A model generated the notes under the pieces. It did no database searches, had not been told where the DNA came from, and saw only the letters and a list, made by a program, of their open reading frames with translations. From assembly GCA_003820375.1 (NCBI GenBank), contig RPQH01000006.1, positions 8,861 to 72,860 of the forward strand: DNA of 64,000 nucleotides, written 5' to 3'. The DNA is from Ignavibacteriota bacterium (GTDB lineage Bacteria > Bacteroidota > Ignavibacteria > Tepidaquicellales > OLB5). Below, one piece after another: positions 20,141 through 47,906 of this stretch (the stretch's first letter is position 1; each line of letters starts with the position of its first letter). Both the position numbers and the translations under genes were made by a program.

Positions 20141-20167
20141 AACAAAAAAGGTTTGTATTATATTCCG

Positions 20168-20192
20168 GGATTTATTTTTTATAAATCCTTTT
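20168..20192 (+). terminator. weak AT-rich hairpin terminator
   Basis: ggatttat-ttttt-ataaatcc followed by tttt, 28 nt after the stop at 20140. Confidence 0.35.
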
Positions 20193-20254
20193 AAAACTAT
20201 ATGTGCATAGCTAGCTATTGGTGCTTTCACATTATAATATTATTGAATTAGTTT

Positions 20255-20570: not shown

Positions 20571-20666
20571 TTGAATATTTATACAGAGCAATGTGAAATG
20601 TATATTTTTTTGAGTTAACTGTATTTATATTTGTATATATTATTTACTACTAATTAAAGCACAAAT

Positions 20667-21092: not shown

Positions 21093-21098
21093 ACCCGG

Positions 21099-22034: not shown

Positions 22035-22037
22035 ATT

Positions 22038-24848: not shown

Positions 24849-24854
24849 TAGCTG

Positions 24855-26355: not shown

Positions 26356-26371
26356 TTATCAGAAATATTTT

Positions 26372-26968
26372 TTATTTATTATTAATAAAATATTTTCGGT
26401 AATCGGCCATAGTATTTATATTTGCAAGAACATTTTCACTTTTAACCGGGATACCTATTTTATTAAACTCGTGCAATATATCCCTCAGGTTTGAATTAAT
26501 ATTTTTTTCTTCTTTTAATCTCCTGATTATCTTTTCACCTATTAAAACCGGATGTCCTGACTTATCATTATAAACAGGAATCACATAACGTTCAATGTTT
26601 CTTTTATTATACATTTTCTTGAGCAGAAGAACACTAATAAACGGGTTGTCAGCATTCTGAATAAATAAGTAAGATTTTTCGTCTGCTTCAGCCAAACCAA
26701 GCGATAATGAATAAAATCTTCCACGCTCCTGATGCTCGTTTATTGTTACTTTTATGTTATAACTGTCTTCTAATTTTTTTATAACTGCATTTTCGGAAAA
26801 TTTTTTATTGAGTACGATAATAATCTTCTTACAACCGAGGTTAAAGTAAGCCTTAATAATTTTCTCAATAAAAGTCATACGCTCCGAATAGGAGAGAAAA
26901 AGTTTTGGTTTATTAGTTCTGGCCGAGTTACCGCCTGCTAACACAACAGCAGTCAAATTTTTTTTCAT
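26372..26968 (-). CDS. MobA/MocA-like nucleotidyltransferase (molybdenum cofactor cytidylyl/guanylyl-transferase)
   Basis: 198 aa. 'AVVLAGGNSAR' NTP-transferase motif. Sits at the head of the Mo-enzyme operon. Confidence 0.75.
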   Translation of the reverse strand: MKKNLTAVVLAGGNSARTNKPKLFLSYSERMTFIEKIIKAYFNLGCKKIIIVLNKKFSENAVIKKLEDSYNIKVTINEHQERGRFYSLSLGLAEADEKSYLFIQNADNPFISVLLLKKMYNKRNIERYVIPVYNDKSGHPVLIGEKIIRRLKEEKNINSNLRDILHEFNKIGIPVKSENVLANINTMADYRKYFINNK

Positions 26969-27111: not shown

Positions 27112-28290
27112 TTGAAAAACATTGACCAAATATTAGAACACTGTAAAGAACTGGCTTTTGACCTTGAGTTTTCTTATGCAAAGAACTGGAAGTCAGCTCA
27201 AACGGACAGAGTGTTGATTGGATACATGCCCATTTATTTTCCAAGGGAGATAACTCACGCTGCTAATGCTCTTGCTGTTGGTATATTGGGAACAGGAGAC
27301 CGCAAGCAAATTATCAAAGGTGATGCTTTCTACCAATCTTATATTTGTCACATTCCGAGAGGAATAATTGAGCTTGCACTTGACGGCAACCTTGACGAAA
27401 TAGATGGGTTTATTTTTCCATCCATTTGTGATGTTATAAGAAATCTTTCAGGGACTTTCCAGATTCTTAAAAAAGGTAAGTTTGTTAAATATCTCGATTA
27501 CCCTCAAAACTTTCTGTCTCACATCGGAGGAAAGTTTTATAAAACAGAACTACTCCATATACTTCATGAGATTCAAAAAATAAATAACATTGAAGTCACA
27601 CCGGAAAAACTGAACAACTCCATAAAACTTTATAATATTAATCAAAGGCTTCTTAAAGAAATATATAATATCCGGCAGGAATATCCGTGGAGAATATCAT
27701 TTGAAAATCTTTATTATGTGGTCAGGGCAGGAATGGTAATTACTGTAGAAGAGCATAATAAGATACTTGAAGATGTTCTTGAATTCTTAAACATCAATAA
27801 CGGAGAGCCAATGGATAAAATAAAAGTAGTTATTTCTGGCGCCTTTTGTGAACAGCCGCCGATCGGATTAATAAAAACAATCGAGCTGGCAGGCTGTTAC
27901 ATAGTAGATGATGATTTATTGCTTGGCTCCAGATGGATGAAAGGCGATGTTGCCGATAATACTGATGACCCGCTGAATGCTCTGTCGGAAGCTTACATGA
28001 ATCTAAGTACTTTTTCGTCCTCTGTATATTCGGTTGGTAAGCCAAAAGGCGAACAGCTTGTACAGTTAATTAAGGAAAGAAATGCCGACGGAATTATATT
28101 TGCTGCCCCAAGCTTTTGTGACCCTGCACTTCTGGATCTTCCGGTAATGCAGAAAGCATGTGATGATGCAAACATCCGTTACATCAGCTTCCAGTACAAT
28201 GAAAATACCGGGCAGTATAAAGTAATTAAAGAACAGGTCGGAGCATTCTCCGACTCAATAAAGTTGTGGGAAGATACAGTTTCCAGTTAA
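27112..28290 (+). CDS. bcrC: benzoyl-CoA reductase (class I, ATP-dependent) subunit C (gamma)
   Basis: 392 aa with a TTG start. HgdA/B-BcrB/C family look ('LIGYMPIYFPREITHAANALAVGILG', 'IFAAPSFCDP'). It is the first gene of a 392/430/461/281-aa set that matches Thauera bcrCBAD order and sizes. Confidence 0.75.
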   Translation: MKNIDQILEHCKELAFDLEFSYAKNWKSAQTDRVLIGYMPIYFPREITHAANALAVGILGTGDRKQIIKGDAFYQSYICHIPRGIIELALDGNLDEIDGFIFPSICDVIRNLSGTFQILKKGKFVKYLDYPQNFLSHIGGKFYKTELLHILHEIQKINNIEVTPEKLNNSIKLYNINQRLLKEIYNIRQEYPWRISFENLYYVVRAGMVITVEEHNKILEDVLEFLNINNGEPMDKIKVVISGAFCEQPPIGLIKTIELAGCYIVDDDLLLGSRWMKGDVADNTDDPLNALSEAYMNLSTFSSSVYSVGKPKGEQLVQLIKERNADGIIFAAPSFCDPALLDLPVMQKACDDANIRYISFQYNENTGQYKVIKEQVGAFSDSIKLWEDTVSS

Positions 28291-28372
28291 TAATTAATAA
28301 TGTTTACGGTTACTTATTAATAATATAATAAGTTTTACAGCTGCTATTTAATAATTTAAATAAGGTACAGCC

Positions 28373-29665
28373 TTGTCTAAAGAAGTAGAAAAAGAAAAGA
28401 GCATGGTTCTCCAGAAGGAGATGGTTGCCCGTTTGTTTGATGAACTCAGCGCTGCAAATGAAACAGGCAAAAAAGTTGTCTATACATTTGTTCCCGGTAA
28501 TCTATCAGAGCTGATACTTGCATTCGATATGCTTCCCGTATACCCGGAAATAAATGCTTTGCAGTCCGGAATGAGGAAGCTTTCGGGAAACTATATCCGT
28601 GAGGCTGAAAAGTTCGGGCATTCGGAAGATGTTTGTACATATGTGAAATGTGATATAGGTATGATGCTGAGCGGAAATATCGGACCTACAGGAAAAAAAC
28701 TGCCTGACCCGGACCTTTTACTCCTTAGTTATACAGGGTGCTTTACTTTTATGAAATGGTTTGAGAACCTTGAAAAGCTTTATCCCGGTGTTCCTATTGC
28801 AATGCTTCATACTCCTTACCAGGAGAGCGGAAAAATAACACCTGATATGACTGAATATATGGTAAAGCAGATTAAAGAAGAAGTGATTCCAAAAATGGAA
28901 TTGGTATCAGGCAAAAAGCTGGATGAAGAAAAGTTAAATGCAATTATTCAGAACTCAATTGAAATTGAAGACCTTATAGTGAAGATTTTTGATACTACGA
29001 AAAATGTCCCGTCTCCAATTGATGCATATTTCGCAGGTGTGTATTACATAGGACCAATCAATATCGGGTTCAGAGGGACTAAAGACGCAGTTGATTATTA
29101 CACAGAGCTTTTAAAAGAAATTGAATACAGAGTAGAAAACAAGCTTGGTCCTGTAACCCCGGAAGGAGTAATGGAAGAAAGATTCCGGCTTGTAGTTGAA
29201 GGACCTCCTAACTGGACAAACTTCAGGGAGTTCTGGAAGTTATTTTATGACCATGGTGCTGTAGTTGTTGCCTCTACTTACACTAAAGTAGGCGGTATGC
29301 ATGACCTGGGATTCAGGCATGATGTTAAGCGTCCGTTTGAAAGCTTAGCTGAATATTGTATGAATTGTTATACTAATTTAAATCTTACACAAAGGATTAG
29401 CCTGCTGTCTAAATATATAAAAGATTACAATGCTGACGGGCTTCTTGTTAACTCAATAAAAAGCTGTAATTCATTTTCTGCAGGTCAGCTTATAATGATG
29501 AGAAAAATAGAGGAAGACCTTGAAACCCCCGTAGGCTTTATAGAATCCGACCTGGTTGACCCGAGATATTTTTCTTTCTCGAATATCAAAAACAGGCTTG
29601 ATTCTTTTTTCCAGATGCTTGACCAGCGAAGAGTTATTTTAAAAGATAAAACAGCAGTGATATGA
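28373..29665 (+). CDS. bcrB: benzoyl-CoA reductase subunit B (beta)
   Basis: 430 aa with a TTG start (an alternative ATG lies 10 codons in). Same dehydratase/BCR catalytic-subunit family ('VVYTFVPGNLSELILAFDMLPVYPE', 'LLVNSIKSCNSFSAGQ'). Overlaps the next gene by 4 nt. Confidence 0.75.
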   Translation: MSKEVEKEKSMVLQKEMVARLFDELSAANETGKKVVYTFVPGNLSELILAFDMLPVYPEINALQSGMRKLSGNYIREAEKFGHSEDVCTYVKCDIGMMLSGNIGPTGKKLPDPDLLLLSYTGCFTFMKWFENLEKLYPGVPIAMLHTPYQESGKITPDMTEYMVKQIKEEVIPKMELVSGKKLDEEKLNAIIQNSIEIEDLIVKIFDTTKNVPSPIDAYFAGVYYIGPINIGFRGTKDAVDYYTELLKEIEYRVENKLGPVTPEGVMEERFRLVVEGPPNWTNFREFWKLFYDHGAVVVASTYTKVGGMHDLGFRHDVKRPFESLAEYCMNCYTNLNLTQRISLLSKYIKDYNADGLLVNSIKSCNSFSAGQLIMMRKIEEDLETPVGFIESDLVDPRYFSFSNIKNRLDSFFQMLDQRRVILKDKTAVI

Positions 29666-31047
29666 ATAAATATTATTTAGGCGTTGACCTTGGCTCAACA
29701 ACATCCAAAGCAGTTATCATTAACGATAGAGATGAGATAATTGGCAGGGGGATAACAAATACCCGCGCAAACTACAGGGTAGCTGTTGATATCGCACGGC
29801 TGGAGTCTATATACAATGCAAGATTTTTTTTAATAAAAAAACTTCTTAATGAAGAAATAAAGATAAATCCGATTTATCAAAGATATCTTGATGATATTGA
29901 AAAAGCTTTCCAGTACCTGCAGTTTAAAAAAAGATTAAGCAGCTTATTAAGCCAGTTAAAACTTACAGTTGAGTCACGTTTTTCTGATTTTATCAGGGAT
30001 AAAATATATACAAACATAGAAAATATAATAGAGAAGATTGACACTTTAATAAAAGATGAATATTTGAGCGGTAATTTGGGTTCAAAGAACCAATTTTTCA
30101 GAGATATTGTAAATGAAAAATATCACGATGAAGTTACAGCACTGGATATAGATATGTTTGAACCGTTAATGCTTGCTTTTGATAAAAGCATTACGCCGGT
30201 AGAAAATGAAATGGTTGAATTTGATTTCAGGGAGCTTGTTTACGATGCTATGAGCATTCTCGAAGATAAATATAACGGTCTGGCAAACAGAACCTATAAT
30301 GATGTAAGTGTTCATTTTGATGCTGAGCTTAATCTATTGAAGGGCAGCTACGGCAAAATAACAGATACATTCAAGGAGCATCTTGACAGAGTTGCCGGGC
30401 AGGATTTTCACATTTCGAATATGGTTGGCACAGGTTACGGCAGGGCACTGCTACCATTCCCGGAAGAGTGCATTAAATCAGAGATTCTTTGCCATGCATT
30501 CGGAGCACATGCAATATTTCCCGGAACAAGAACCGTACTCGATATCGGCGGGCAGGATACTAAAGCAATTCAGGTTGATTCGCACGGACTGGTAACAAGC
30601 TTTTATATGAATGACAGGTGTGCTGCAGGTTGCGGAAGATACCTCGGTTATATAGCCGATGAATTAAATATTTCACTTAATGAATTAGGCTCAACAGCTC
30701 TTAGCGCAACTAAAGAAACTAATATCTGTTCAACCTGCACTGTATTTGCCGGTGCAGAGCTGAGAGAACAATTAAATGTAGGCGAAAAGCGTGAGGATAT
30801 TCTTGCCGGACTTCATAAGGCAATTGTAATGCGTGCAATGTCATTAATAGCCCGTTCCGGCGGTGTCAGAAATGAATTTACTTTCACAGGCGGTGTTGCA
30901 AGAAATAAAGCTGTTTTAAAATATGTTACCGAGCTTGTTAAAAAAAATTACGGGGATGATTTGAAGATCAACATACATACAGACTCTATTTTTATGGGTG
31001 CATTAGGCGGTGCAATGTTTGCAAGAAGAAATGTTAACATAAATTAA
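29662..31047 (+). CDS. bcrA: benzoyl-CoA reductase subunit A (alpha, ATP-binding, long form)
   Basis: 461 aa. BcrAD_BadFG ATPase motifs 'LGVDLGSTTSKAV', 'DIGGQDTKAI', 'MNDRCAAGCGRYL' and 'CSTCTVFAGAE', with a roughly 190-aa insertion after the first phosphate loop, as in BcrA/BadF. Confidence 0.85.
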   Translation: MNKYYLGVDLGSTTSKAVIINDRDEIIGRGITNTRANYRVAVDIARLESIYNARFFLIKKLLNEEIKINPIYQRYLDDIEKAFQYLQFKKRLSSLLSQLKLTVESRFSDFIRDKIYTNIENIIEKIDTLIKDEYLSGNLGSKNQFFRDIVNEKYHDEVTALDIDMFEPLMLAFDKSITPVENEMVEFDFRELVYDAMSILEDKYNGLANRTYNDVSVHFDAELNLLKGSYGKITDTFKEHLDRVAGQDFHISNMVGTGYGRALLPFPEECIKSEILCHAFGAHAIFPGTRTVLDIGGQDTKAIQVDSHGLVTSFYMNDRCAAGCGRYLGYIADELNISLNELGSTALSATKETNICSTCTVFAGAELREQLNVGEKREDILAGLHKAIVMRAMSLIARSGGVRNEFTFTGGVARNKAVLKYVTELVKKNYGDDLKINIHTDSIFMGALGGAMFARRNVNIN

Positions 31048-31107
31048 ATTTTCATTTGTTAAACATAGCTGTACAATAAAGATTGTATAAGCAATAAATA
31101 AACAAAT

Positions 31108-31953
31108 ATGTCAAACGAAATAATTACACTTGGTATAGATGTAGGCGGAAGCTACATAAAAGCTGCCTTGATGCATTATTCAAATAACTGCACCATAATT
31201 GATAAAAAGTGTGAGAAGGTCAGGAAAAGAAATCCTTCTGTATTATCCGAAGAAATTATAGAATACCTGTTGGAAAAAAATAATCTTAAACACACAGATA
31301 TAGCATATTCTGCATCAACAGGCGAAGGCGAAATGGTAACACGGAAGACCGGGCATTTCTACAGCATGACTACACATGCCAAAGGCGGGCAGTTCTTTTT
31401 TCCCGAAGCAAGAACTGTTGTTGATATGGGTGCTCTTTATGTCAGGGCGATAAAAATAAATCATGAGGGTAAAGTACTGGATTATAAAATGACCGGACAG
31501 TGTGCTTCAGGTTCAGGGCAGTTTATTGAGAATATTTCAAGGTATCTCGGCCTGGCTATAGAAGAAGTCGGCAGTATTTCACTGCAGTCTCAAAACCCGG
31601 AAACTCCTTCCGGTATTTGTGCAGTACTGGCTGAAACCGATGTAATTAATATGGTATCAAGAGGAATTTCTACTCAAAACATAATCAAAGGGATACATTT
31701 ATCCATAGCAAACAGAGTCATACGTTTGCTGTCATCATTAAAAGCTGAATCCCCGATATTTTTAACCGGCGGAATGGCTATGAATACCGGTATGGTACAG
31801 GCTATTAATGAATTGAAAACCGAAAGCAAATACAAATGGGATATTACTACTAATGATGATGCAATTTATGCAGGAGCATACGGCGCTGCTTTGTGGAGCG
31901 GATTCAGGTTTTTTAAATTGAAAGAAAAGAAAAGCATTATATATGCTGCTTAA
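31108..31953 (+). CDS. bcrD: benzoyl-CoA reductase subunit D (delta, ATP-binding, short form)
   Basis: 281 aa. 'LGIDVGGSYIKAA', 'MTGQCASGSGQFIE' and 'SGICAVLAETDVIN'. The size matches BcrD/BadG. Confidence 0.85.
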   Translation: MSNEIITLGIDVGGSYIKAALMHYSNNCTIIDKKCEKVRKRNPSVLSEEIIEYLLEKNNLKHTDIAYSASTGEGEMVTRKTGHFYSMTTHAKGGQFFFPEARTVVDMGALYVRAIKINHEGKVLDYKMTGQCASGSGQFIENISRYLGLAIEEVGSISLQSQNPETPSGICAVLAETDVINMVSRGISTQNIIKGIHLSIANRVIRLLSSLKAESPIFLTGGMAMNTGMVQAINELKTESKYKWDITTNDDAIYAGAYGAALWSGFRFFKLKEKKSIIYAA

Positions 31954-32026
31954 TTCTAAATAAAAATCTCGAATTGTTGTGAAAATATTTCTATAATATT
32001 TATTACACAAATTAAAATTTATCAGC

Positions 32027-33751
32027 ATGCAAGTCATTGAATCGGGAAAAAAATTAGGAGCTTTAATTCCTAATATTGCTACAATGCTAAGCAATAACCA
32101 AAAAAAATATTCCAGCAGAATAATTTATCAGGAAAGAATAAATAACAGTTATGCTGGTATTACATGGAATGAGTTTTTAAGCAAGATAGAAAATATTGCA
32201 TTCAACCTGAAAAATTTTGATTTTCAAGCAGGCGATAAGGTTATGGTATTTTCAAAGAACCGGCTTGAAATGCTTCTGCTCGAGCTTGCGGTGATGTCTT
32301 CAGGCGGTATATCCGTTCCAATTTTTTTCAATTATAATGAGGGTACTGTTGAATCGTTAATAAACCATTCGGATGCTAAGTTTATTGCCGTTGGTGACAA
32401 GTCGCAGCTAGACAGGGTAAATCCTTCTTTAAAGTTAAAAAGGATTTTTTCATTTGATGAAATTACTGATAATAATTATAATAACCTTACCTGGTTTTCA
32501 GAATTGCTTAAGGATAAAAACGGAAACAGCTCATTCCTGAATTTTGATTCTCAGCCCGATGATATATGCCTTAATATGTACACTTCAGGAACAATGGGCA
32601 GGCAAAAATGTGTCCAGTTAACTCATAAAAATATTTTATCTCAGCAGGCGGCTTTAAAATTAATATGGAATGTCGATGAAAACGACAGGTTCTTAAGTTA
32701 CTTACGCTGGCATCACAGCTTTGGCGGGATATTCGAAAAATTTACTGCTTTATATAATGGCGCTGCAATTTCTCTTGAATCAAGCAATGGCTTGAATCCG
32801 GATACTATATTAGAAAACTGGAAGCTGGTAAAGCCGACAATTTTCTTCAGTGTTCCGATGATATACCACTCACTTATCGATATGACATTAAGGGATAAAG
32901 AGATAGAAAAATGTTTCTTCCATGAAGAACTGAAATTTGTTTTTACAGCAGCAGCTCCGCTTCCGCATCATATATCGGATGAATTTGAAAAACGGAAAAT
33001 AAATGTGCTTGAAGGGTGGGGACTAACCGAAACTTCACCATGCTGTACAGTAACAGATCCGGAATTAAAACGGGAACCGGGCGTAATAGGTTTTCCTATA
33101 CCCGGTGTAAAGATAAGGTTAGCTGATGATAATGAAATGCAGGTTAGCGGTCCCAATATTATGGTCGGTTATTATAAGAATGATGAGGAAAATGAAAAAA
33201 GCTTTACTGAAGACGGATGGTTCTGTACGGGTGATATCGGAGAGCTCACCGATAAAGGATTTAAGCTTATTACACGAAAAGACAGGATATTTAAATTATC
33301 CAATGCAGAGAAAATTATTCCTACAGAACTGGAAAACATAATAACCAATAAGTGTCATTATATATCATATGCATTGGTTGAAGGGAACGGGAGAAATTAT
33401 CCTGTTGCATTGCTGTTTCCTGATAAAATGCTGCTGGAAGAATCTAAAAACGGACATCATATCGATATTCATGATTGTAACTGTCCAAAAGACCTTTGCG
33501 AACTGTCAGATTGCTTAAAAGGATGCCTTATAAATATTAACAACGGCTTAAAGCAAAAATATACTGTAATAAAAGCTGCTATGATTATAGATGATGCATT
33601 GAAGGTTGATAATGGTACACTTACCCCATCACTTAAGCTTGCTCCAAATAATGTTAAAGGTATTTATAAAGCTCATTTGGAAAAACTATATGGTTCAATT
33701 GAACCCGTTAAAGAACAAACCTATATAATTTATTTAAATGGAAAGCAATAA
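32027..33751 (+). CDS. AMP-forming acyl-CoA ligase (FadD/long-chain-type rather than canonical benzoate-CoA ligase type)
   Basis: 574 aa. 'YTSGTMGRQKCV' (AMP-binding box), 'GWGLTETS' and 'TGDIGELTDKGFKLITRKDRIFKLSNAEKIIP'. Confidence 0.85.
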   Translation: MQVIESGKKLGALIPNIATMLSNNQKKYSSRIIYQERINNSYAGITWNEFLSKIENIAFNLKNFDFQAGDKVMVFSKNRLEMLLLELAVMSSGGISVPIFFNYNEGTVESLINHSDAKFIAVGDKSQLDRVNPSLKLKRIFSFDEITDNNYNNLTWFSELLKDKNGNSSFLNFDSQPDDICLNMYTSGTMGRQKCVQLTHKNILSQQAALKLIWNVDENDRFLSYLRWHHSFGGIFEKFTALYNGAAISLESSNGLNPDTILENWKLVKPTIFFSVPMIYHSLIDMTLRDKEIEKCFFHEELKFVFTAAAPLPHHISDEFEKRKINVLEGWGLTETSPCCTVTDPELKREPGVIGFPIPGVKIRLADDNEMQVSGPNIMVGYYKNDEENEKSFTEDGWFCTGDIGELTDKGFKLITRKDRIFKLSNAEKIIPTELENIITNKCHYISYALVEGNGRNYPVALLFPDKMLLEESKNGHHIDIHDCNCPKDLCELSDCLKGCLININNGLKQKYTVIKAAMIIDDALKVDNGTLTPSLKLAPNNVKGIYKAHLEKLYGSIEPVKEQTYIIYLNGKQ

Positions 33752-33771
33752 TTCGTTTTAATTAAAATAAT

Positions 33772-34989
33772 ATGATTGAAATAAAATCGACCGGCTTATT
33801 AAAAGAAGTAATGAAGAACTATTTCACCGGTATTGGGACCGGTGGAAGAAAAGTTGCGTGGTGTACAAGTGTTGGACCGGCAGAACTTCTCCGGTCGTTT
33901 GGATTTGATGTATATTTTCCGGAGAACCATGGTGCTTTGCTTGGTGCATCAAGAATAGCAGATATATATATCCCCAATGCACAGAAAAACGGTTACTCAA
34001 ACCAGATTTGTTCATACACAACCAGTGATATAGGTGCTTTCCTTTGCAATGAAACTCCGTTGAAAAAGCATTACGGCTTAGATTCTATACCAAAACCCGA
34101 TTTAATAGTTTACTGTACAAATCAATGCAGAGAAGTTGAAGACTGGTTTACTTTTTATGCTGATAATTTTAAATGCCCTGTTGTTGGAATTAATCCTCCA
34201 AGATACTTAGATGAGGTAAGAATTGAAGAGGTTGAAGTTGTCATAAGCCAGTTTAAAAAGCTTATTACTGTTTGTGAATCAGTCACCGGTATAAAGTTTG
34301 ATTTGGATAAATTCAAAAATGTATTAAAATTAAGTAAGGAAGCCACCTTATTATGGCAGGATGTATTAAAGACTTCAACTTCTATCCCTGCACCATTTAA
34401 CTTTTTTGACGGCACAATCCATATGGGTCCAATTGTAGTTATGAGAGGAACACAGGAAGCAAAGGATTATTACAATGTTTTATTAAGCGAGCTGCAGCAG
34501 TTTGTTGAGCAAGGCAAGGGATTTTTGAAAGAGGAAAACTGCAGGCTTTTCTGGGATGGAATGCCCATATGGGGCAAGATAAGAGTATTATCCGATTTGT
34601 TCTCGCAAAGCAACGCAGTGGTTGTTGCTTCAACATATTGCAATAGCTGGATATTTGATGATTTTGATGAAGAAAATCCGCTTGAATCTTCTGCTTTAGC
34701 ATATATTAAAATTTTTATAAACAGAAGTGAAAAAGCAAAAATTGAGTTTTTTAAAAAATGGTTCGAGGAGTACAAAATAGATGGTATTATTTATCATGAT
34801 TCCAAAACCTGTTTTAACAACTCAAACTCCAGGTTTGGATTGCCTCTGCGGTTAAAAAAAATTACTCAAATTCCTTACCTTGTTGTGGAAGGTGACCTGA
34901 ACGACCTGAGATTCTTTTCTGAAGGACAAACAATAAACAAGATAGAAACTTTCGTTGAGCAAATAGAAAACCAGAAAATTTATAAATGA
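33772..34989 (+). CDS. single 2-hydroxyacyl-CoA dehydratase / BCR catalytic-subunit-family protein (HgdA/B-like)
   Basis: 405 aa. 'KVAWCTSVGPAELLRSFGFDVYFPENH', 'ICSYTTSD' and 'IIYHDSKTCFNNS' are family-typical Cys-containing blocks. No partner subunit gene lies adjacent. Confidence 0.7.
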   Translation: MIEIKSTGLLKEVMKNYFTGIGTGGRKVAWCTSVGPAELLRSFGFDVYFPENHGALLGASRIADIYIPNAQKNGYSNQICSYTTSDIGAFLCNETPLKKHYGLDSIPKPDLIVYCTNQCREVEDWFTFYADNFKCPVVGINPPRYLDEVRIEEVEVVISQFKKLITVCESVTGIKFDLDKFKNVLKLSKEATLLWQDVLKTSTSIPAPFNFFDGTIHMGPIVVMRGTQEAKDYYNVLLSELQQFVEQGKGFLKEENCRLFWDGMPIWGKIRVLSDLFSQSNAVVVASTYCNSWIFDDFDEENPLESSALAYIKIFINRSEKAKIEFFKKWFEEYKIDGIIYHDSKTCFNNSNSRFGLPLRLKKITQIPYLVVEGDLNDLRFFSEGQTINKIETFVEQIENQKIYK

Positions 34990-35027
34990 GGTTTGCCTGC
35001 AATCAGGGCAATTAGAATATAACAGCT

Positions 35028-36896
35028 ATGGAAAACGAAATAAACAAAAACGGCACTCCTCTTCCAAAAATTGGAATTATCGGCCTGGGTCCCGTAGGTA
35101 TGATTCTGGCTGTTCATTTAAAGGAAGCCGGATGCGACCTTGCTATTTGTGATAATGATAAGATAAAAATTAATTTAATAAGAAAAGAAGGAATCCGCTT
35201 AGAAGAGAGTATTAATAAGCACTGTTTCTTTGATAAGGTTTATACAAGCATTCAGGAACTTAAAGACTTTATGCCCGATATTTTAGTTTTTTCTTTAAAG
35301 ACCCACCAGATGTCGGCTGTTCTTTCTGAAGCAGCTAAATTAAAACATGATAACCTCTGTGTAGTAAGTGCACAGAACGGTATTGATTCCGAGAAAATGC
35401 TGTCACGTGTTTTTGGAGAATCAAGAACACTCAGGTTTGTAGTAAATTATGCAGGTAATTTAAATGCACCGAATATAGTAAAAGTAACGTTTTTCATCCC
35501 GCCTAATTACATAGCTTCAATGGATGACAGTCACGCTAATGAAGCAAAATATATAGCCGGGCAGTTAAACAGTATTAACCTGACAACAGAAGCTGTTAAT
35601 TCATATGATATTTTAAAAAGAATATGGGAGAAGACCATCTTAAATTCTGCACTCAGTGCAATCTGTGGTATCGGGAAGTTAACAATGAAAGAAGCAATGG
35701 ATATCCCCGATACGGAAGAGATTGTTGAAATGCTCATCCAGGAAGCTGTCGAAGTTGCTGAAGCTGAAAAAATTAAGTTTGAAGATGATTTTATAAGAAA
35801 ATGCATGCGATACCTTAGAAGAGGCGGCAATCACTTCCCCTCGCTTGCAGTTGACCTGATAAATAATAAAGAAACGGAAATAGATTATTTTAATGGTGCG
35901 ATAGTTGAATACGGCAGAAAACACTATATCAGAACATCATTGAACCTGGCATTTACCAATATGGTAAAAGCAATGACGCACAAAAATATTATTTCACAGT
36001 TCTCGGGAACAGGTTTAAATCCGCCCGAAAAGAAATCAAAGCATCACCAGATACATTTGCATCACGATAGAAAAGCTGCTCCAATTAAGGGCGAAAATCA
36101 TTTCCTTGGAATTGACCTCGGCTCAGCCTATATCAAATTTACTGTGATCGATTCCAATGATGAAATTGTTTTTAATTCAACGCTTAAAACTTTAAACAGG
36201 GATAAAATAGCCTTAAGGCATGTTCTGGAAGCAATCCGTTCTGAATACCCGGTCAGTTATACATGTTCCACAGGGTACGGAAGAAAGCATTTTCATGATT
36301 CTGAAGTAATCAAAACTGAGATAAACTGCGCAGCAGCAGCAGTTTCTTATTACTATCCGGGACCGAAAAATATTATCGATATTGGCGGTGAAGACATAAA
36401 GATAATCAGGTGTGATGATTTTAATAATGTAGAGAATTTTTATCTGAATGATAAATGTGCGGCAGGCACAGGCTCTTTTATTTCCGAGATTGCCGAACGT
36501 GCAGATATTAAAGTATCGGAGATGAGTGACCTGGCTTCTAAATCAACATTTGCAAAAGAGCTTAACAGTTTTTGTACAGTGTTTGCTAAAACTGAAATCA
36601 TGAGCTGGTTATTCGATGGAATATCGGTTGGTGATATTTCAAAAGGGATATATATATCACTGGCAAATAAGGTATCCCGCCTCAGGGTTGATACAAATGT
36701 TCCATCCTATATGATAGGAGGGGTTATTGAATTCCACCCTTATCTTAAAACACTGTTAGAAGAAAAATTCTTATCCGAGGTAAGTATTCTTGAAAAGCCC
36801 CAGCACGTAGTATCGTTTGGTGCTGCCTTAATCGCAAAGCAATCTTATTTAAAACAACTTCAAAAAGAAGAACTGATAAAAAGCAAATTAATATGA
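35028..36896 (+). CDS. fusion protein: N-terminal ketopantoate-reductase (PanE/ApbA)-family NAD(P)H oxidoreductase + C-terminal HgdC-type [4Fe-4S] activator ATPase
   Basis: 622 aa. N-terminal part: 'KIGIIGLGPVGMILA' Rossmann, 'WEKTILNSA' and 'PSLAVDLINNKETEIDYFNGAIVEYG' (ApbA_C-like). C-terminal part from about residue 357: 'LGIDLGSAYIKF', 'DIGGEDIKII', 'LNDKCAAGTGSF' and 'NSFCTVFAKTEI'. Confidence 0.8.
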   Translation: MENEINKNGTPLPKIGIIGLGPVGMILAVHLKEAGCDLAICDNDKIKINLIRKEGIRLEESINKHCFFDKVYTSIQELKDFMPDILVFSLKTHQMSAVLSEAAKLKHDNLCVVSAQNGIDSEKMLSRVFGESRTLRFVVNYAGNLNAPNIVKVTFFIPPNYIASMDDSHANEAKYIAGQLNSINLTTEAVNSYDILKRIWEKTILNSALSAICGIGKLTMKEAMDIPDTEEIVEMLIQEAVEVAEAEKIKFEDDFIRKCMRYLRRGGNHFPSLAVDLINNKETEIDYFNGAIVEYGRKHYIRTSLNLAFTNMVKAMTHKNIISQFSGTGLNPPEKKSKHHQIHLHHDRKAAPIKGENHFLGIDLGSAYIKFTVIDSNDEIVFNSTLKTLNRDKIALRHVLEAIRSEYPVSYTCSTGYGRKHFHDSEVIKTEINCAAAAVSYYYPGPKNIIDIGGEDIKIIRCDDFNNVENFYLNDKCAAGTGSFISEIAERADIKVSEMSDLASKSTFAKELNSFCTVFAKTEIMSWLFDGISVGDISKGIYISLANKVSRLRVDTNVPSYMIGGVIEFHPYLKTLLEEKFLSEVSILEKPQHVVSFGAALIAKQSYLKQLQKEELIKSKLI

Positions 36897-38155
36897 AATC
36901 TTATCACAACAGGGAAAAAGGAATTGGAATTTTATATGACGGCGTTTATTTCGTTAACGGAGCAAGAACACCGTTCGGCAAATTCTGCGGAACCCTGGCA
37001 AAAGTTTCACCTACTGATTTAGGTATTTATGCATCAAAAGCAGCATTTAAAAATTCTGCCTTAACTCCTGAAGAAATAGATCAGGTTATTGTCGCAAATA
37101 TAGGTCAGGCATGTACTGACGCATATTTTCTGGCAAGACATATATCACTTTTCAGCGGTGTTCCAATAACGGTACCGGCAATGATGGTTCAAAGGATTTG
37201 TGCATCAGGATTGGAAACAATTAATTCAGCCGCAGAACAAATAACACTTGGAAAAGCTGAAAAAGTTTTGTGCTGCGGAACAGAGAATATGTCACTTGCT
37301 CCCACCGTGAGTTACGGAAACAGGATGGGCTACGGATTGGGGAAAATTGAATTTAAGGATATGCTCTGGGAAGCGCTTGATGATACAGCCTGCGGATATC
37401 CAATGGGTGAAACAGCAGAAAATCTTGCTAAAAAATACAGTATTACACGCCGGGAAATTGATGAATTTGCAAAACAATCCCATGACAGGGCTGCGGAAGC
37501 AGTCCAGAAAGGGTTTTATTGTGATGAGATTTCACCTGTCAGCTCTGAAGTATTTAGTGTTGATGGATTGAAACAAAGGAAAGTAAATCTTCCGAAAAAT
37601 GTAACAGCTTTTAATTCGGATGAAAATATCAGGCAAACTACCGTTGAAGCTCTGGGCAGGCTGCCTTCTGCTTTTATTAAAGACGGAGTACAGACAGCGG
37701 GGAATTCCAGCGGAATTGTAGATGGTGCAGCAGCTGGTATCGTCGCTTCAACTAAAGCTGTTGAAGAATACGGTTTAAAGCCGCTCTCTAAAATTATTGG
37801 CGTTGCTTCATGCGGGGTTGATCCTAAATATATGGGAATCGGTCCTGTTCCCGCAATTGAAATTTTGCTGGAGCTTACCGGATTAAATCTTGATGAAATA
37901 GACCTGTTCGAAATTAATGAAGCTTTTGGTGCTCAATATATTGCATGTGAAAAAGAACTAAATCTTGACAGAAATAAAGTAAACGTTAACGGCGGCGCAA
38001 TTGCAATAGGACATCCTCTTGGTGCAACAGGTATAAGACAGGTTTTAACTCTCTCAAGAGAATTGATTAACAGAAAAGTTAAGTATGGAATAGCAACAGC
38101 CTGTGTTGGCGGAGGACAGGGCACAGCAGTTTTAATTGAAAATATAAATTCATAA
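36893..38155 (+). CDS. acetyl-CoA C-acyltransferase (thiolase)
   Basis: 420 aa. Active-site 'RICASGLETI', 'NVNGGAIAIGHPLGATG' and 'CVGGGQG'. Overlaps the upstream gene by 4 nt. Confidence 0.9.
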   Translation: MKSYHNREKGIGILYDGVYFVNGARTPFGKFCGTLAKVSPTDLGIYASKAAFKNSALTPEEIDQVIVANIGQACTDAYFLARHISLFSGVPITVPAMMVQRICASGLETINSAAEQITLGKAEKVLCCGTENMSLAPTVSYGNRMGYGLGKIEFKDMLWEALDDTACGYPMGETAENLAKKYSITRREIDEFAKQSHDRAAEAVQKGFYCDEISPVSSEVFSVDGLKQRKVNLPKNVTAFNSDENIRQTTVEALGRLPSAFIKDGVQTAGNSSGIVDGAAAGIVASTKAVEEYGLKPLSKIIGVASCGVDPKYMGIGPVPAIEILLELTGLNLDEIDLFEINEAFGAQYIACEKELNLDRNKVNVNGGAIAIGHPLGATGIRQVLTLSRELINRKVKYGIATACVGGGQGTAVLIENINS

Positions 38156-38200
38156 ATAAGAAATCACATAACATAAATTTTTAACCTTAAATAATTTTCA

Positions 38201-39265
38201 ATGGACAATAAGATTTATTCATGGCAAATGACCGAGATGAAGAAAGATTTTCAGTTGACAGAAAAACCATTTCCGGAGCTTAAAGAAGGAATGGCTTTAG
38301 TCCGGGTTTCCGGGTGCGGAGTTTGTCATACTGATTTAAGCTTCTGGTATTTCGGAGTTCAAACCAAACATCCTCTGCCGCTGACTCTTGGACATGAGAT
38401 AAGCGGTACTGTTATTGATGGCCCTGCAGAATGGCTCAACAAAAAAGTAATTATTCCCGCTGTGCTTCCGTGCGGTGAGTGTGATTTATGTAAAAGCGGA
38501 AGAAGCAACATTTGCAGGAAGCAATTAATGCCCGGAAATGATTTTGACGGCGGATTTTCTTCTCACATTGTTGTTCCATACAAGTATTTATGTCCCGTTC
38601 CGGATGAAGTGTTAAAGTGTTATTCAATGGAGCAGCTTTCTGTTATCGCAGATGCAATTTCTACCCCATACCAGGTAATAGAAAAGTCGGAACTTGTGCC
38701 TGGTGACCTTGCAATAACAATAGGTGTCGGTGGCGTAGGAATTTACGGAGCGCAAATTGCTAAAATAAAAGGCGCAAAAGTTATTGCACTCGATATCAAT
38801 GATGACAGGTTAGAAATCGCCAAATCGGTTGGTGCAGATGAAGTATTAAATATCAAAGATATGGATATCAAATCAATAAAAGAAAAGATAAAAGTAATTG
38901 CAAAAGAGCTGAATGCCCCGAAGCACTCATGGAAAATATTTGAGTTTTCCGGTACAAAAGCAGGACAGGAATTAGCTTATAATTTAATAACTTTTGCATC
39001 AACTCTTTCTATAGTTGGTTTTACTCTTGACAGAGTTGAAGTCAGGTTAAGCAATCTTATGGCATTTGATGCCAAACTAATTGGTACATGGGGATGTAAA
39101 CCGGAATTATATCCTGAAGTTGTTGACCTTGTTGCAAAAGATAAAATTAAGCTTAACCGGTTTGTTGAATTATTTCCTTTGTCAAAAATAAACGAGGTGT
39201 TTAAAAATACTTTGGAACATAAATACAGCAAACGTTCAGTACTAATACCTGATTTTAATAATTAA
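38201..39265 (+). CDS. had: Zn-dependent alcohol dehydrogenase, probable 6-hydroxycyclohex-1-ene-1-carbonyl-CoA dehydrogenase
   Basis: 354 aa. 'GCGVCHTDLSFWYFG', 'GHEISG', a structural-Zn Cys cluster 'CGECDLCKSGRSNIC' and Rossmann 'GVGGVGIYGAQ'. It lies directly upstream of the oah-like gene. Confidence 0.7.
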   Translation: MDNKIYSWQMTEMKKDFQLTEKPFPELKEGMALVRVSGCGVCHTDLSFWYFGVQTKHPLPLTLGHEISGTVIDGPAEWLNKKVIIPAVLPCGECDLCKSGRSNICRKQLMPGNDFDGGFSSHIVVPYKYLCPVPDEVLKCYSMEQLSVIADAISTPYQVIEKSELVPGDLAITIGVGGVGIYGAQIAKIKGAKVIALDINDDRLEIAKSVGADEVLNIKDMDIKSIKEKIKVIAKELNAPKHSWKIFEFSGTKAGQELAYNLITFASTLSIVGFTLDRVEVRLSNLMAFDAKLIGTWGCKPELYPEVVDLVAKDKIKLNRFVELFPLSKINEVFKNTLEHKYSKRSVLIPDFNN

Positions 39266-39278
39266 CAAAAAATTTACA

Positions 39279-40379
39279 ATGAAAATACTTAATTCGCATA
39301 ACCTAAACGAAATCCAATATTCAGAAATAATAGTCGAAAAAAGACCATGTCTGCAAAAAGATGGGACTCCGGCAGAAGGGTTATTCAATACATGGATAAT
39401 ATTGAATAATGCCAAACAGTTTAATTCTTATACAACACAGGCAGTCAAAGAAGTTATACTTGCATTCCGTGAAGCTTCAAATGATAGAAGCACAATTGCT
39501 GTTGTTTTTACTGCAGTAGGTGATAAAGCATTTTGTACAGGTGGAAACACTAAAGAGTATGCAGAATATTATGCAGGCAATCCACAGGAATATAAACAAT
39601 ATATGCGGTTATTCAATGATATGGTTTCAGCTATATTAATGTGTGATAAACCTGTTATTAACCGGGTAAACGGCATGCGTATCGGCGGAGGACAGGAAAT
39701 CGGAATGGCTTGTGATTTTTCTATTGCACAGGATTTAGCAAGATTCGGGCAGGCAGGTCCTAAACATGGCAGTGCACCCGATGGCGGCTCAACTGACTTT
39801 CTGCATCTTTTTGTAGGAATTGAAAAAGCTATGTACTCTTGCACAATATGCGATCCCTGGAGTGCACATGAAGCTTTAAGATTTAGCCTTATAACCGAAG
39901 TTGTTCCGGCTTTAAAGCTGGATGGAAAATATATTCCAAATCCTCTTGTACATACCGATAAATGGGTAAATGAGTTTGGACAAATAGTATATGGTACAGC
40001 AAAAAAAGGTGAAGATTTAGCACAGGCAAAAGAATTTTTAAAACAATGTGAAGTAGATTTTACTTTGTTTGATGAAGTAATAGAACGCTACTGTACTAAG
40101 TTAATGTACCTGTTCCCGAATTGTTTAAGCAAGACATTAAATTCATTGAGGAAGAAGAAGCTTGAACACTGGGATAAAAATAAAGAAAGTAACCGTGACT
40201 GGCTTGCATTAAATATGATGACGGAAGCGAAAGCAGGCTTCAAAGCTTTTAATGACGGACCTAAAGATAACAGGGAAGTTGATTTTGTAAGATTAAGGCA
40301 ATTGCTTGCAGGCGGCTGTGAGTGGAGTGATGAGCTTATCAGGGAGATTTCACCTCAATTTCAAAAAGTAAATGATTAA
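39279..40379 (+). CDS. oah: 6-oxocyclohex-1-ene-1-carbonyl-CoA hydrolase (ring-cleaving crotonase, BamA/Oah)
   Basis: 366 aa, long-form crotonase. 'FCTGGNTKEYAEYYAGNPQEYKQYMRLFNDMV...CDKPVINRVNGMRIGGGQEIGMACDFSIAQDLARFGQAGPKHGSAPDGGSTDF' matches my recollection of the conserved BamA/Oah core. Confidence 0.8.
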   Translation: MKILNSHNLNEIQYSEIIVEKRPCLQKDGTPAEGLFNTWIILNNAKQFNSYTTQAVKEVILAFREASNDRSTIAVVFTAVGDKAFCTGGNTKEYAEYYAGNPQEYKQYMRLFNDMVSAILMCDKPVINRVNGMRIGGGQEIGMACDFSIAQDLARFGQAGPKHGSAPDGGSTDFLHLFVGIEKAMYSCTICDPWSAHEALRFSLITEVVPALKLDGKYIPNPLVHTDKWVNEFGQIVYGTAKKGEDLAQAKEFLKQCEVDFTLFDEVIERYCTKLMYLFPNCLSKTLNSLRKKKLEHWDKNKESNRDWLALNMMTEAKAGFKAFNDGPKDNREVDFVRLRQLLAGGCEWSDELIREISPQFQKVND

Positions 40380-40399
40380 CCTTAAAATTAAATTTTAAT

Positions 40400-41173
40400 A
40401 TGAACAAAATTAAATTAGATTATTTGCAAAATGATTCTGTTGCACATATTGTTTTAAATGCACCAAAAGGAAATGTTCTTGATGCAGTTATGATGAACGA
40501 ACTAACAGAAGTATTCAGTGAACTAAAAACAAATAATAATATTAAAGTAATTACATTTGAAGGTGAAGGTAATCATTTTTCATTCGGGGCAAGTGTGGAT
40601 GAGCATAAAAAAGAACTAGCGGCAGCTATGCTAAAGAGCTTCCATGAATTATTTTACAATATCATAAACCTTAGTATTCCAACAATTGCAAAAATATCAG
40701 GACAGTGTCTTGGCGGGGGACTTGAGCTTGCATTAATTTGCAATTTCTTATTTGCAGATAAAACGGCAAAGCTTGGGCAGCCGGAAATAATCCTGGGGGT
40801 ATTCCCGCCGCCGGCTTCTGTAATTCTTCCGTTAAAAATTGGGTCGGCTAAAGCGGAAGAAATTTTATTAACAGGTAAAACTATTTCTGCTGATGAAGCA
40901 AAGGCTATAGGTATTGTGAATGAAGTATTCGAAAATAAAAATATTCTTGAAAATAGTGTAAACGAATTCATAGAAAAAAACCTGCTTCCAAAGAGTGCAT
41001 CATCTTTAAGATATGCTGTGAAAGCGGCAAGATCTAATTTTAATTGCGTACTAAGAGATAACCTGAAAGTTCTTGAATCATTATATGTCAATAAGCTGAT
41101 GGAGACAAATGATGCAAACGAGGGAATTAATTCATTTTTAGAAAAAAGAAAGCCGGTTTGGCAGAATAATTAA
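40400..41173 (+). CDS. dch: enoyl-CoA hydratase family, probable cyclohexa-1,5-diene-1-carbonyl-CoA hydratase
   Basis: 257 aa crotonase fold ('FSFGASVDEH', 'GQCLGGGLELALICNFLFA'). The functional call rests on its position next to had and oah. Confidence 0.6.
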   Translation: MNKIKLDYLQNDSVAHIVLNAPKGNVLDAVMMNELTEVFSELKTNNNIKVITFEGEGNHFSFGASVDEHKKELAAAMLKSFHELFYNIINLSIPTIAKISGQCLGGGLELALICNFLFADKTAKLGQPEIILGVFPPPASVILPLKIGSAKAEEILLTGKTISADEAKAIGIVNEVFENKNILENSVNEFIEKNLLPKSASSLRYAVKAARSNFNCVLRDNLKVLESLYVNKLMETNDANEGINSFLEKRKPVWQNN

Positions 41174-41193
41174 TATATATTTCTAATTAATAA

Positions 41194-43238: not shown

Positions 43239-43268
43239 AAAGCCCATTAATTCATTAACGGGCTTTTT
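43239..43268 (+). terminator. rho-independent terminator closing the aromatic operon
   Basis: aaagcccattaa-ttca-ttaacgggcttt followed by tt. It sits between convergent genes, 36 nt after the stop at 43203. Confidence 0.6.
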
Positions 43269-45803: not shown

Positions 45804-45829
45804 ACTATTTTTTAAGTGAACTAACTTGT

Positions 45830-47170: not shown

Positions 47171-47309
47171 ATAAATTATTTAGCCTTAATAATTTTAGGT
47201 TTATATAGAATGTAATTTTTTTGAAATCTTGATTTTTCACTTTTCTTTGATTAGTGACCGTTCTTTCATAATTTATGTAAGTAATAAAAAATAATAATTC
47301 TTGCATTAA

Positions 47310-47867: not shown

Positions 47868-47906
47868 ATATTTAAGCGGTCATACATGTTTAACTTTTTT
47901 GTTGTT

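Follow-up and report, generated by a model that had tools for sequence, protein, structure and literature searches.

A three-gene module within a benzoyl-CoA operon

We analysed a 64,000-nucleotide stretch of DNA (hereafter the window; GC content ~34%) from an Ignavibacteriota bacterium (contig RPQH01000006.1 of assembly GCA_003820375.1, positions 8,861 to 72,860), in which a plus-strand operon (27112-43203) encodes, in this order, BcrC, BcrB, BcrA, BcrD, an acyl-CoA ligase, a 405-aa protein with a single HGD-D domain for which we use the working name hgdX, a fusion of a PanE-type reductase to an activase (PanE::activase), a thiolase, Had, Oah, Dch and a 3-hydroxyacyl-CoA dehydrogenase/enoyl-CoA hydratase (HAD/ECH). 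Our subject is the trio formed by the ligase, hgdX and fusion genes, for which the coordinates and domain calls of a first-pass annotation of this DNA proved exact, as did its placement of the trio between bcrCBAD on one side and the thiolase/had/oah/dch genes on the other. The features of the trio, followed by those of its companions, are:

32027-33751, + strand: AMP-forming acyl-CoA ligase, 574 aa, with AMP-binding and AMP-binding_C_3 domains
33772-34989, + strand: hgdX, 405 aa, with one HGD-D domain (PF06050)
35028-36896, + strand: PanE::activase fusion, 622 aa, with ApbA/ApbA_C followed by BcrAD_BadFG
35028-35990, + strand: PanE/ApbA-type NAD(P)H-dependent 2-oxoacid reductase domain, fusion residues ~1-320
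35991-36101, + strand: interdomain linker of the fusion, ~37 residues, poorly conserved
36102-36896, + strand: HgdC/HadI-type ATP-dependent activase domain, residues ~359-605 plus a C-terminal tail
27112-31953, + strand: bcrC, bcrB, bcrA and bcrD, Thauera-type class I benzoyl-CoA reductase (BCR)
36893-43203, + strand: thiolase, had, oah, dch and 669-aa HAD/ECH, ring cleavage and beta-oxidation enzymes
21099-26968, - strand: molybdenum enzyme resembling 4-hydroxybenzoyl-CoA reductase (4-HBCR), with FAD-binding beta subunit, gamma::alpha fusion, short-chain dehydrogenase/reductase (SDR), XdhC and MocA

The intergenic gaps at the trio are 73, 20 and 38 bp, the stop codon of the fusion gene overlaps the start codon of the thiolase gene, and the sole strong hairpin (43239-43266) comes after the last gene of the operon. 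A promoter scan, made with a tool that does not cover Bacteroidota promoters, gave no enrichment.

The module is conserved across uncultured bacteria

A scan of species-representative genomes returned 80 hgdX loci, and 87 loci were compared altogether; the co-occurrence counts below take only those loci that have enough flanking sequence for each test. Directly upstream of hgdX lies an AMP-forming ligase in 60/76 loci and an ADP-forming acyl-CoA synthetase in 9, and the PanE::activase fusion lies directly downstream in 62/77. The bcrCBAD genes accompany hgdX in 53 of 59 loci, had, oah and dch are present in 37, 35 and 35 of 48, and a molybdenum enzyme gene set is found within 10 kb of hgdX in 34/48. 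The order of the trio thus recurs beside bcr genes in most of the 87 loci, an arrangement far beyond chance. The first-pass annotation had regarded the three genes as foreign to canonical benzoyl-CoA clusters; the module does not represent an insertion into this operon and is instead a fixed part of a cluster type that is widespread in the Fibrobacteres-Chlorobi-Bacteroidetes (FCB) group and also occurs beside class II ring reductases (see below). It is therefore a conserved, uncharacterised architecture rather than an oddity of one genome.

All carriers are uncultured metagenome-assembled genomes (MAGs), mostly from Bacteroidota (Saprospiraceae, Flavobacteriales, Chitinophagales and Cytophagales) and Ignavibacteria, with Calditrichaceae (Calditrichota), KSB1, Kapaibacterium and two MAGs labelled Gammaproteobacteria as minor carriers. 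Relatives of hgdX at 67-92% identity number in the thousands.

Some loci carry additional genes. Two genes without a Pfam match (504 and 383 aa) separate ligase and hgdX at a single locus (L001, 7315-9985). A caprolactamase-like hydantoinase A/B pair and a TrpB-like pyridoxal phosphate enzyme (NF009057, 731 bits) follow the module and the HAD/ECH gene in 6-8 loci (L005, L010 at 15504-21103, L018, L037, L061, L068, L069 and L072), neighbours that may point to a link with indole or lactam metabolism. We also considered whether the HAD/ECH gene is an extra paralogue dedicated to the module and rejected this, as there is just one HAD/ECH gene per cluster; it comes in two types and sits either at the cluster end or directly after the fusion gene.

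hgdX is an alpha-type HGD-D protein outside the benzoyl-CoA reductase clade

PF06050 matches hgdX residues 34-398 at 201 bits, and the NCBIfam profiles rank HadB (224 bits) above BcrB (166 bits) and the double-cubane model (57 bits). Among PDB sequences hgdX is likewise closest to the HadB alpha subunit (168 bits), followed by MbdO (126 bits) and BzdO (70 bits), whereas the BcrB protein of the window shows the opposite order (MbdO 205 bits, HadB 126 bits). hgdX also stays below the equivalog cutoffs of the BCR models (TIGR02260, 166 vs about 487 bits; TIGR03191, 71 vs 449) and of the double-cubane model (NF040772, cutoff 350). Its AlphaFold2 (AF2) model, with a mean predicted local distance difference test (pLDDT) score of 87, has the HGD-D fold with two alpha/beta domains (template modelling [TM] scores of 0.85-0.89 to 3O3M_A, 9G87_A and 8S02_A). 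The best match is the HadB alpha subunit (TM 0.88-0.89, 29% identity), with the BCR catalytic subunits at TM 0.85-0.89 and 20-25% identity, the double-cubane cluster protein (DCCP) at 0.73-0.78 and beta/gamma-type subunits at 0.70-0.73. In a neighbour-joining tree (100 bootstraps, rooted on beta-type subunits, FldB, HgdA and LcdA sequences left out), BcrB/MbdO and relatives form a clade with 94% bootstrap support that excludes hgdX, which is placed with HadB in a large non-BCR alpha-type radiation whose internal branching is poorly resolved. That hgdX is of alpha type, resembles HadB most in sequence, profile and fold, and is not nested in the BcrB/MbdO clade supports its reading as a 2-hydroxyacyl-CoA dehydratase.

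The protein retains its Fe-S ligands: C80, C119 and C347 do not vary among 84 orthologues, align with the [4Fe-4S] ligands of HadB and MbdO and correspond to the BzdO cluster ligands Cys95, Cys128 and Cys380 (Fuchs et al. 2025, PMC11971306). Neither of the two sequence-level objections named in the first-pass annotation, nesting among BCR subunits and loss of the Fe-S ligands, therefore applies. Also invariant are E51, Y82, Y289 and S33 (BzdO Glu65, Tyr97, Tyr298 and Ser44), and R120, beside ligand C119 in a CREV motif after the second ligand, is near-invariant. Two further cysteines are conserved, C31 in all sequences and C290 in 54/55 and 84/84. C290 aligns exactly with BzdN Cys263 and a distal-cubane ligand of DCCP, and C31 falls one column off BzdN Cys36, so that five of the six double-cubane positions are cysteines in hgdX (C31, approximately, C80, C119, C290 and C347). 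A counterpart of BzdN Cys293 is absent from the hgdX alignment, and C257 is a cysteine in only 35-45% of the sequences. In neighbouring clades C31 or C290 is conserved, never both, which argues against joint ligation of a second cubane; the two residues may be cluster ligands or catalytic thiols. At the position of BzdO Trp46, which fills the space of the lost sub-cluster jointly with the benzoyl ring, hgdX has an invariant glycine (Gly35).

None of the loci examined encodes a beta-type HGD-D partner, although one may be encoded at a distance. The only other HGD-D genes in these loci are bcrB and bcrC (or a bzd-like N/O pair in L063), and three loci (L085, L086 and L087) have hgdX with a single activase gene, no BcrC-type gene and no other HGD-D gene. 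To our knowledge, every characterised 2-hydroxyacyl-CoA dehydratase is an alpha-beta heterodimer. Given the lack of a beta partner gene and the extra conserved cysteines, hgdX is not a canonical FldBC/HadBC-type enzyme; it is presumably homodimeric.

The fusion protein and the ligase keep their catalytic residues

The PanE domain of the fusion scores 160 bits against TIGR00745 (cutoff 141) and keeps GxGxxG, N117, K202 (WEKTILN), S272 and E283 (TEID) among 69 orthologues; its closest solved relative is 8WL1. The activase domain matches PF01869 at 119 bits and the CoA_E_activ model TIGR00241 at 160 bits (cutoff 125), its best PDB matches are HadI (130 bits), HgdC (126) and MbdQ (120), and the cysteines that hold the bridging cluster, C477 (NDKCAAGTG) and C516 (NSFCTVFA), are invariant. 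Between the two domains, residues 321-358 have a mean column conservation of 0.17-0.21, compared to 0.5-0.8 in both domains. In the ligase, the P-loop, GWGLTET, TGD and catalytic lysine motifs are conserved in 63 orthologues, and both proteins look functional as judged from these motifs. That the fusion might pass electrons from NAD(P)H to BCR or 4-HBCR was considered and discarded, since PanE has no flavin with which to split the hydride.

The 574-aa ligase reaches no NCBIfam equivalog and has no benzoate-CoA ligase model among its 25 best matches; its best PDB matches are weak (MatB, 118 bits; oxalate-CoA ligase, 100 bits). The clusters have no CoA-transferase, in the place of which they encode an AMP-forming ligase or an ADP-forming synthetase, and the reductase present is of the PanE family. 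As the prevalent ligase is AMP-forming, flux should run from the acid to the CoA ester. The C-terminal domain of the ligase (residues ~484-501) also contains a conserved C-x-C-P-x10-C-x3-C motif that is uncommon among acyl-CoA ligases and may bind a metal or be redox-active.

Fusions and gene displacement tie the parts of the module together

PanE is fused to the activase in 62/77 loci, and the exceptions show how the same parts are recombined. At L083, PanE and activase are separate genes within the cluster; free PanE genes also occur within the clusters of L086 and L087 and adjacent to hgdX at L063, which has two of them and no activase-like gene adjoining hgdX, and a free-standing activase (244-270 aa) is encoded at L083 and L085-L087. 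An exhaustive search of the representative genomes further revealed a 728-aa PanE::hgdX fusion (P0121) at L085, in a Myxococcota MAG, the hgdX part of which is 54% identical to hgdX of the window and keeps the full cysteine signature. That PanE occurs in fusion with the activase, in fusion with hgdX and as a free protein is a Rosetta-stone sign that the parts act together.

The ligase is exchanged in a comparable manner. An ADP-forming acyl-CoA synthetase (CoA_binding, Succ_CoA_lig and ATP-grasp_5 domains) replaces the AMP-forming ligase in ten loci, and in nine of them it occupies the ligase slot directly upstream of hgdX. At L067, a 185-aa remnant of the AMP-forming ligase (6220-6774, 34% identity) lies directly upstream of the replacing synthetase, in what appears to be a displacement in progress. 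The presence of one or the other enzyme directly upstream of hgdX ties CoA activation to hgdX. Two other PanE::HGD-D fusions, P0127 (603 aa) and P0142 (768 aa), have all three [4Fe-4S] cysteines replaced (S/G/S and S/G/T) and look like hgdX relatives that lost the Fe-S cluster.

The module is not bound to one ring reductase

In the window, BcrC, BcrB and BcrD score above their equivalog cutoffs (TIGR02263, 438 vs 421 bits; TIGR02260, 643 vs 486; TIGR02261, 317 vs 313), and BcrA scores below its own (TIGR02259, 422 vs 578); the best PDB matches of the bcr products are MbdO (205 bits) and MbdN (201 bits). BcrA (29662-31047, 461 aa) is matched over 449 residues by a Pfam profile of 271 positions, so it should have a large insertion that the family model lacks. 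Of the lower-pathway enzymes, Had (TIGR03201, 454 vs 339) and Oah (TIGR03200, 586 vs 464) pass their cutoffs and Dch does not (234 vs 292).

Three loci place the module in other company. A second hgdX subclade, ~53% identical to hgdX of the window, occurs in MAGs labelled Bacteroidales, Chlorobi and Ignavibacteria and is represented here by the loci L086 and L087. Both encode a 668-aa tungsten enzyme of the aldehyde ferredoxin oxidoreductase (AFOR) family together with a 183-aa ferredoxin-like protein and a CCG/Fer4 protein, a set that in domain architecture and context matches a BamBCD-like class II reductase. Beside it follow genes for the ADP-forming synthetase, PanE, Had, Oah, Dch, hgdX, the activase, a thiolase and HAD, then an acyl-CoA dehydrogenase (L087 only), the molybdenum enzyme and an SDR, and neither locus contains class I bcr genes or a second HGD-D gene. 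The third, L085, is an island of PanE::hgdX, activase, molybdenum enzyme gamma, beta and alpha subunits, XdhC and MocA, without a bcr, had, oah, dch or ligase gene within 10 kb, so that the 4-HBCR-like enzyme is the sole cluster-related neighbour of the module. These loci rule out that hgdX is an alternative substrate-binding subunit pairing with BcrC, as L086 and L087 are BamB-like without bcr genes and L085 has no ring reductase nearby. Occurring with a class I BCR, with a BamB-like class II reductase or with only the 4-HBCR-like enzyme, the module would serve the aromatic pathway rather than one particular reductase.

Neighbouring genes as clues to the substrate

The molybdenum enzyme genes lie upstream of the operon and are divergent from it, and a single 936-aa fusion protein (21099-24848) combines the gamma and alpha subunits. 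The alpha part scores 584 bits to HcrA (1rm6_A) compared to 362 for the next family, and the beta subunit can be aligned to HcrB, with the four cysteines of the extra, 4-HBCR-specific [4Fe-4S] loop all in place; both remain below the equivalog cutoffs (TIGR03194, 816 vs 995; TIGR03195, 219 vs 405). The enzyme is thus HcrABC-like and a putative 4-HBCR, as the first-pass annotation had claimed. At L063, L085 and L086 the beta subunit is without the loop, and the alpha subunits are 41-44% identical to that of the window (L085 alpha, 497 bits to HcrA vs 348 for the next family). In this comparison, the loop is present in clusters of class I type and missing in those with a class II or no ring reductase. 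An Rrf2 regulator gene (20667-21092) adjoins the molybdenum enzyme genes; the clusters of L001 and L085 likewise have one at their flank. The 4-HBCR-like enzyme is the most constant companion of the module, and such a para-dehydroxylase homologue fits a 4-hydroxyphenyl substrate.

A class I aminotransferase gene (43298-44566) follows the operon on the minus strand, and the first-pass annotation had assigned to its product the entry into the pathway. We discarded it as the arylpyruvate source, since the gene is convergent, lies behind the hairpin and adjoins the cluster in 0/48 fully flanked loci. Four clusters nevertheless have a HisC-family aminotransferase gene inside or adjoining them, each in a different place: flanked by the two PanE genes (L063), between the fusion gene and the thiolase (L054), between HAD/ECH and the thiolase, beside a thiamine diphosphate enzyme whose best match is the alpha subunit of indolepyruvate ferredoxin oxidoreductase (IOR; L043), and, as a partial copy, directly upstream of bcrC (L067). 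The three full-length copies score 297-314 bits against TIGR01141 (cutoff 277) and the partial one 232. HisC-type enzymes commonly transaminate aromatic amino acids. The HisC-type genes in four clusters, the IOR-alpha-like neighbour and the association with a 4-HBCR-type enzyme lend indirect support to the proposed link to aromatic amino acids; the aminotransferase originally cited is not conserved.

A proposed route from aromatic amino acids to benzoyl-CoA

The reading that we favour, with about even confidence, is that the trio is an ATP-activated 2-hydroxyacyl-CoA dehydratase module that feeds 2-oxoacids derived from tyrosine and phenylalanine into the benzoyl-CoA pathway and that is probably tyrosine-centred. 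It is supported by the consecutive encoding of ligase, reductase, activase and dehydratase functions with intact catalytic residues, and it retains the logic of the aryl-lactyl-CoA route put forward in the first-pass annotation, now with the coupling of the parts by fusion and displacement; the aminotransferase that it named had to be dropped. The domain identities, the conserved catalytic and cluster residues and the pattern of co-occurrence, fusion, fission and displacement are observed, and from them we infer the substrate, the flux direction, the homodimeric state of hgdX and the role of its extra cysteines.

In the proposed route, a transaminase would convert tyrosine or phenylalanine to 4-hydroxyphenylpyruvate or phenylpyruvate; its gene would lie outside this operon, with HisC-type enzymes embedded in the clusters of some relatives. 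The PanE domain would reduce the arylpyruvate with NAD(P)H to the (R)-aryl-lactate, and the 574-aa ligase (in some genomes the ADP-forming synthetase) would form aryl-lactyl-CoA. The activase domain, predicted to form a homodimer around a bridging [4Fe-4S] cluster (C477 and C516), would then spend ATP on the transfer of one electron to the hgdX [4Fe-4S] cluster (C80, C119 and C347), upon which a ketyl radical would expel the alpha-hydroxyl, and beta-deprotonation with return of the electron would give 4-coumaroyl- or cinnamoyl-CoA. HAD/ECH and thiolase would shorten these to 4-hydroxybenzoyl- or benzoyl-CoA plus acetyl-CoA, the 4-HBCR-like enzyme would take off the para-hydroxyl, and BcrCBAD, Dch, Had and Oah would dearomatise and then open the ring. 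Other substrates were set aside (mandelate/phenylglyoxylate, quinate, 2-oxoadipate and 2-oxopimelate), as they have no beta-hydrogen, do not arise from ketone reduction or do not lead to benzoyl-CoA.

A stronger form of this proposal, in which hgdX founds a new alpha-only homodimeric branch of the BCR I/HAD radical enzyme family, its two extra cysteines at former double-cubane positions providing a non-canonical Fe-S site or catalytic thiols, and, with a PanE reductase fused to its activator or to hgdX, runs a widespread and hitherto unknown anaerobic route from tyrosine and phenylalanine via aryl-lactyl-CoA and coumaroyl- or cinnamoyl-CoA to benzoyl-CoA, seems to us possible but doubtful.

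Several observations weigh against the favoured route. There is no nearby beta-type HGD-D subunit, unlike in the known heterodimeric dehydratases, and C31 and C290, at or near double-cubane positions, could together with Gly35 indicate a different cofactor and chemistry. The nearest solved relatives of the ligase, weakly similar as they are, act on small dicarboxylates (malonate and oxalate). Thiolase and HAD/ECH, to which the first-pass annotation had assigned the shortening of the side chain, are present and could carry it out, but the lower benzoyl-CoA pathway requires both regardless of the module, so their presence is unspecific. The in-cluster aminotransferases occur in 4 of ~60 loci and, scoring above the hisC cutoff, could be ordinary hisC genes. 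Finally, with MAGs as the only carriers, the substrate is deduced from gene context.

The first of these points bear on an unlikely alternative in which hgdX and the activase form an ATP-driven, homodimeric reductase or dehydroxylase that would stand between double-cubane proteins and BCR, have an aromatic or alicyclic CoA ester as its substrate and work with the 4-HBCR-like enzyme, PanE being a carbonyl reductase on a neighbouring intermediate. It would account for the single subunit, as in homodimeric DCCP, for C290 at the position of BzdN Cys263 and the DCCP ligand, C31 near BzdN Cys36 and Gly35 in place of Trp46, and for L085, where the sole cluster-related neighbour is a reductive dehydroxylase homologue. 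Yet one of the six double-cubane positions lacks a cysteine, C31 and C290 are not jointly kept in neighbouring clades, the double-cubane model (cutoff 350) gives just 57 bits, the fold is nearer to HadB (TM 0.88) than to DCCP (0.73-0.78), and hgdX falls outside the BCR clade; moreover, the tight coupling of 2-oxoacid reductase and carboxylate activation to hgdX would be left unexplained.

The dicarboxylate-using relatives of the ligase would fit a module that links 2-oxoglutarate, 2-hydroxyglutarate and glutaconyl-CoA in either direction, with hgdX as a 2-hydroxyglutaryl-CoA dehydratase. Glutaconyl-CoA and glutaryl-CoA arise from the lower pathway, the L087 acyl-CoA dehydrogenase best matches a non-decarboxylating glutaryl-CoA dehydrogenase, the reversible ADP-forming synthetases could serve to conserve ATP, and the near-invariant R120 beside C119 could bind a carboxylate. 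We regard this as more unlikely still, because the AMP-forming ligase of 60/76 loci sets the direction from acid to CoA ester with no obvious tie to the ring reductases, oxidising 2-hydroxyglutarate with NAD(P) is unfavourable, glutaconyl-CoA decarboxylase genes are absent, and the L085 island, the HisC-type aminotransferases and the IOR-like gene are left unexplained.

The slimmest chance goes to the same dehydratase chemistry on another 2-oxo- or 2-hydroxyacid (indolepyruvate from tryptophan, plant aryl-lactates imported as such, or branched-chain or other aliphatic 2-oxoacids), with co-location reflecting only co-regulation: the TrpB-like enzyme and caprolactamase-like pair after the module in 6-8 loci, the leucine-derived substrate of HadB, the nearest solved relative, and the many 2-oxoacids taken by PanE-family enzymes would fit, but aliphatic and indole products do not enter the benzoyl-CoA pathway, and the module sits in benzoyl-CoA clusters of two mechanistic types from several phyla, beside a 4-HBCR-like enzyme.

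Other features of the window

Outside the operon and its companions, the window encodes two proteins with C-terminal sorting domains of the type IX secretion system (5252-6904 and 18848-20140), from which the host can be recognised as a member of the Bacteroidota, and a 1111-aa regulator with tetratricopeptide repeats and a bacterial transcriptional activator domain (TPR/BTAD; 15492-18827). From 45216 to 64000, the minus strand carries an extracellular contractile injection system (CIS) cluster with genes for a C39 peptidase, an AAA ATPase, two eCIS_core proteins, a CIS tape-measure protein and a gp25 baseplate wedge, along with three large proteins without a Pfam match (1314, 1018 and 1165 aa).

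Novelty and implications

Full-text literature searches found no earlier description of the module, although a conversion of phenylpyruvate via phenyllactyl-CoA and cinnamoyl-CoA to benzoyl-CoA has been hypothesised for a benzene degrader (PMC13416013, 2026). Radical dehydratase chemistry as such is known; new are the alpha-only architecture with PanE fusions, the ATP-dependent CoA activation and the proposed pathway wiring. If the favoured reading is true, uncultured FCB-group bacteria of groundwater, lakes, sediments and sludge would degrade aromatic amino acids anaerobically by a route never demonstrated, in which clostridial-type radical dehydration is joined to beta-oxidation and ring reduction and replaces the phenylacetate/phenylglyoxylate route, and benzoyl-CoA metabolism would extend to lineages usually seen as polymer or protein degraders. 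hgdX, with its unusual set of cysteines, would then be the first 2-hydroxyacyl-CoA dehydratase to consist of alpha subunits only, and could illuminate the passage of the family from double-cubane homodimers to heterodimeric dehydratases and reductases. Thousands of entries labelled 'BcrC/BadD/HgdB' or '2-hydroxyglutaryl-CoA dehydratase' could then receive a proper annotation.

Comparison with known systems

The closest characterised system by sequence (168 bits), profile (224 bits) and fold (TM 0.88-0.89, 29% identity) is HadBC/HadI of Clostridioides difficile (3O3M and 4EHT), with which hgdX shares the three cysteine ligands, the glutamate of the PEN motif and the tyrosines by the thioester, and HadI is also nearest to the activase (130 bits). 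Unlike HadBC, hgdX comes without a HadC-like beta subunit and has C31, C290, the CREV motif and Gly35, and unlike HadI its activase is fused to a PanE reductase. The place of the HadA CoA-transferase is taken by an ATP-dependent ligase or synthetase in the module, and whereas HadBC operates in clostridial fermentation, the module is found in respiratory or facultative FCB-group hosts in a context of aromatic degradation. FldABC/FldI of Clostridium sporogenes, together with phenyllactate dehydrogenase, performs the chemistry proposed here, from arylpyruvate to a cinnamoyl-type CoA ester with an ATP-dependent activator. The clostridial route is, however, reductive and ends in arylpropionates, while in the proposed route the enoyl-CoA would be beta-oxidised and the product dearomatised; the module also differs in having no FldA-type CoA-transferase, a single hgdX instead of FldB/FldC and a PanE-family dehydrogenase.

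With BcrB/MbdO and BzdO (9G87 and 8S02), hgdX shares the fold (TM 0.85-0.89), the three cluster cysteines and the conserved glutamate, and class I BCR and the module are alike in the ATP-dependent electron activation by a BcrAD/HgdC-type unit. The differences are Val122 for BzdO His131 and Gly35 for Trp46, the absence of any need for a BcrC/BzdN-type partner in the cluster and the occurrence of hgdX in class II-only clusters. DCCP and DCCP-R (6ENO and 7YYL) resemble hgdX in being encoded by a single gene, presumably homodimeric, and served by a dedicated ATP-dependent activator, and five of the six positions of the DCCP [8Fe-9S] ligands are cysteines in hgdX but the sixth is not; hgdX is further set apart from DCCP by a TM score of 0.73-0.78 at 17% identity and by its CoA-ester pathway context.

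At the level of the pathway, the proposed route would begin (transamination) and end ((4-hydroxy)benzoyl-CoA, 4-HBCR and BCR) as the phenylalanine and tyrosine route of denitrifiers such as Thauera and Aromatoleum does. The latter proceeds via (4-hydroxy)phenylacetyl-CoA and (4-hydroxy)phenylglyoxylate, with loss of C1 as CO2, oxidation of the alpha-carbon and a second decarboxylation, and no pad- or paa-type genes were found in the 64-kb window. The proposed route would, in contrast, keep the C3 side chain, remove the alpha-hydroxyl by radical chemistry and release acetyl-CoA by beta-oxidation.

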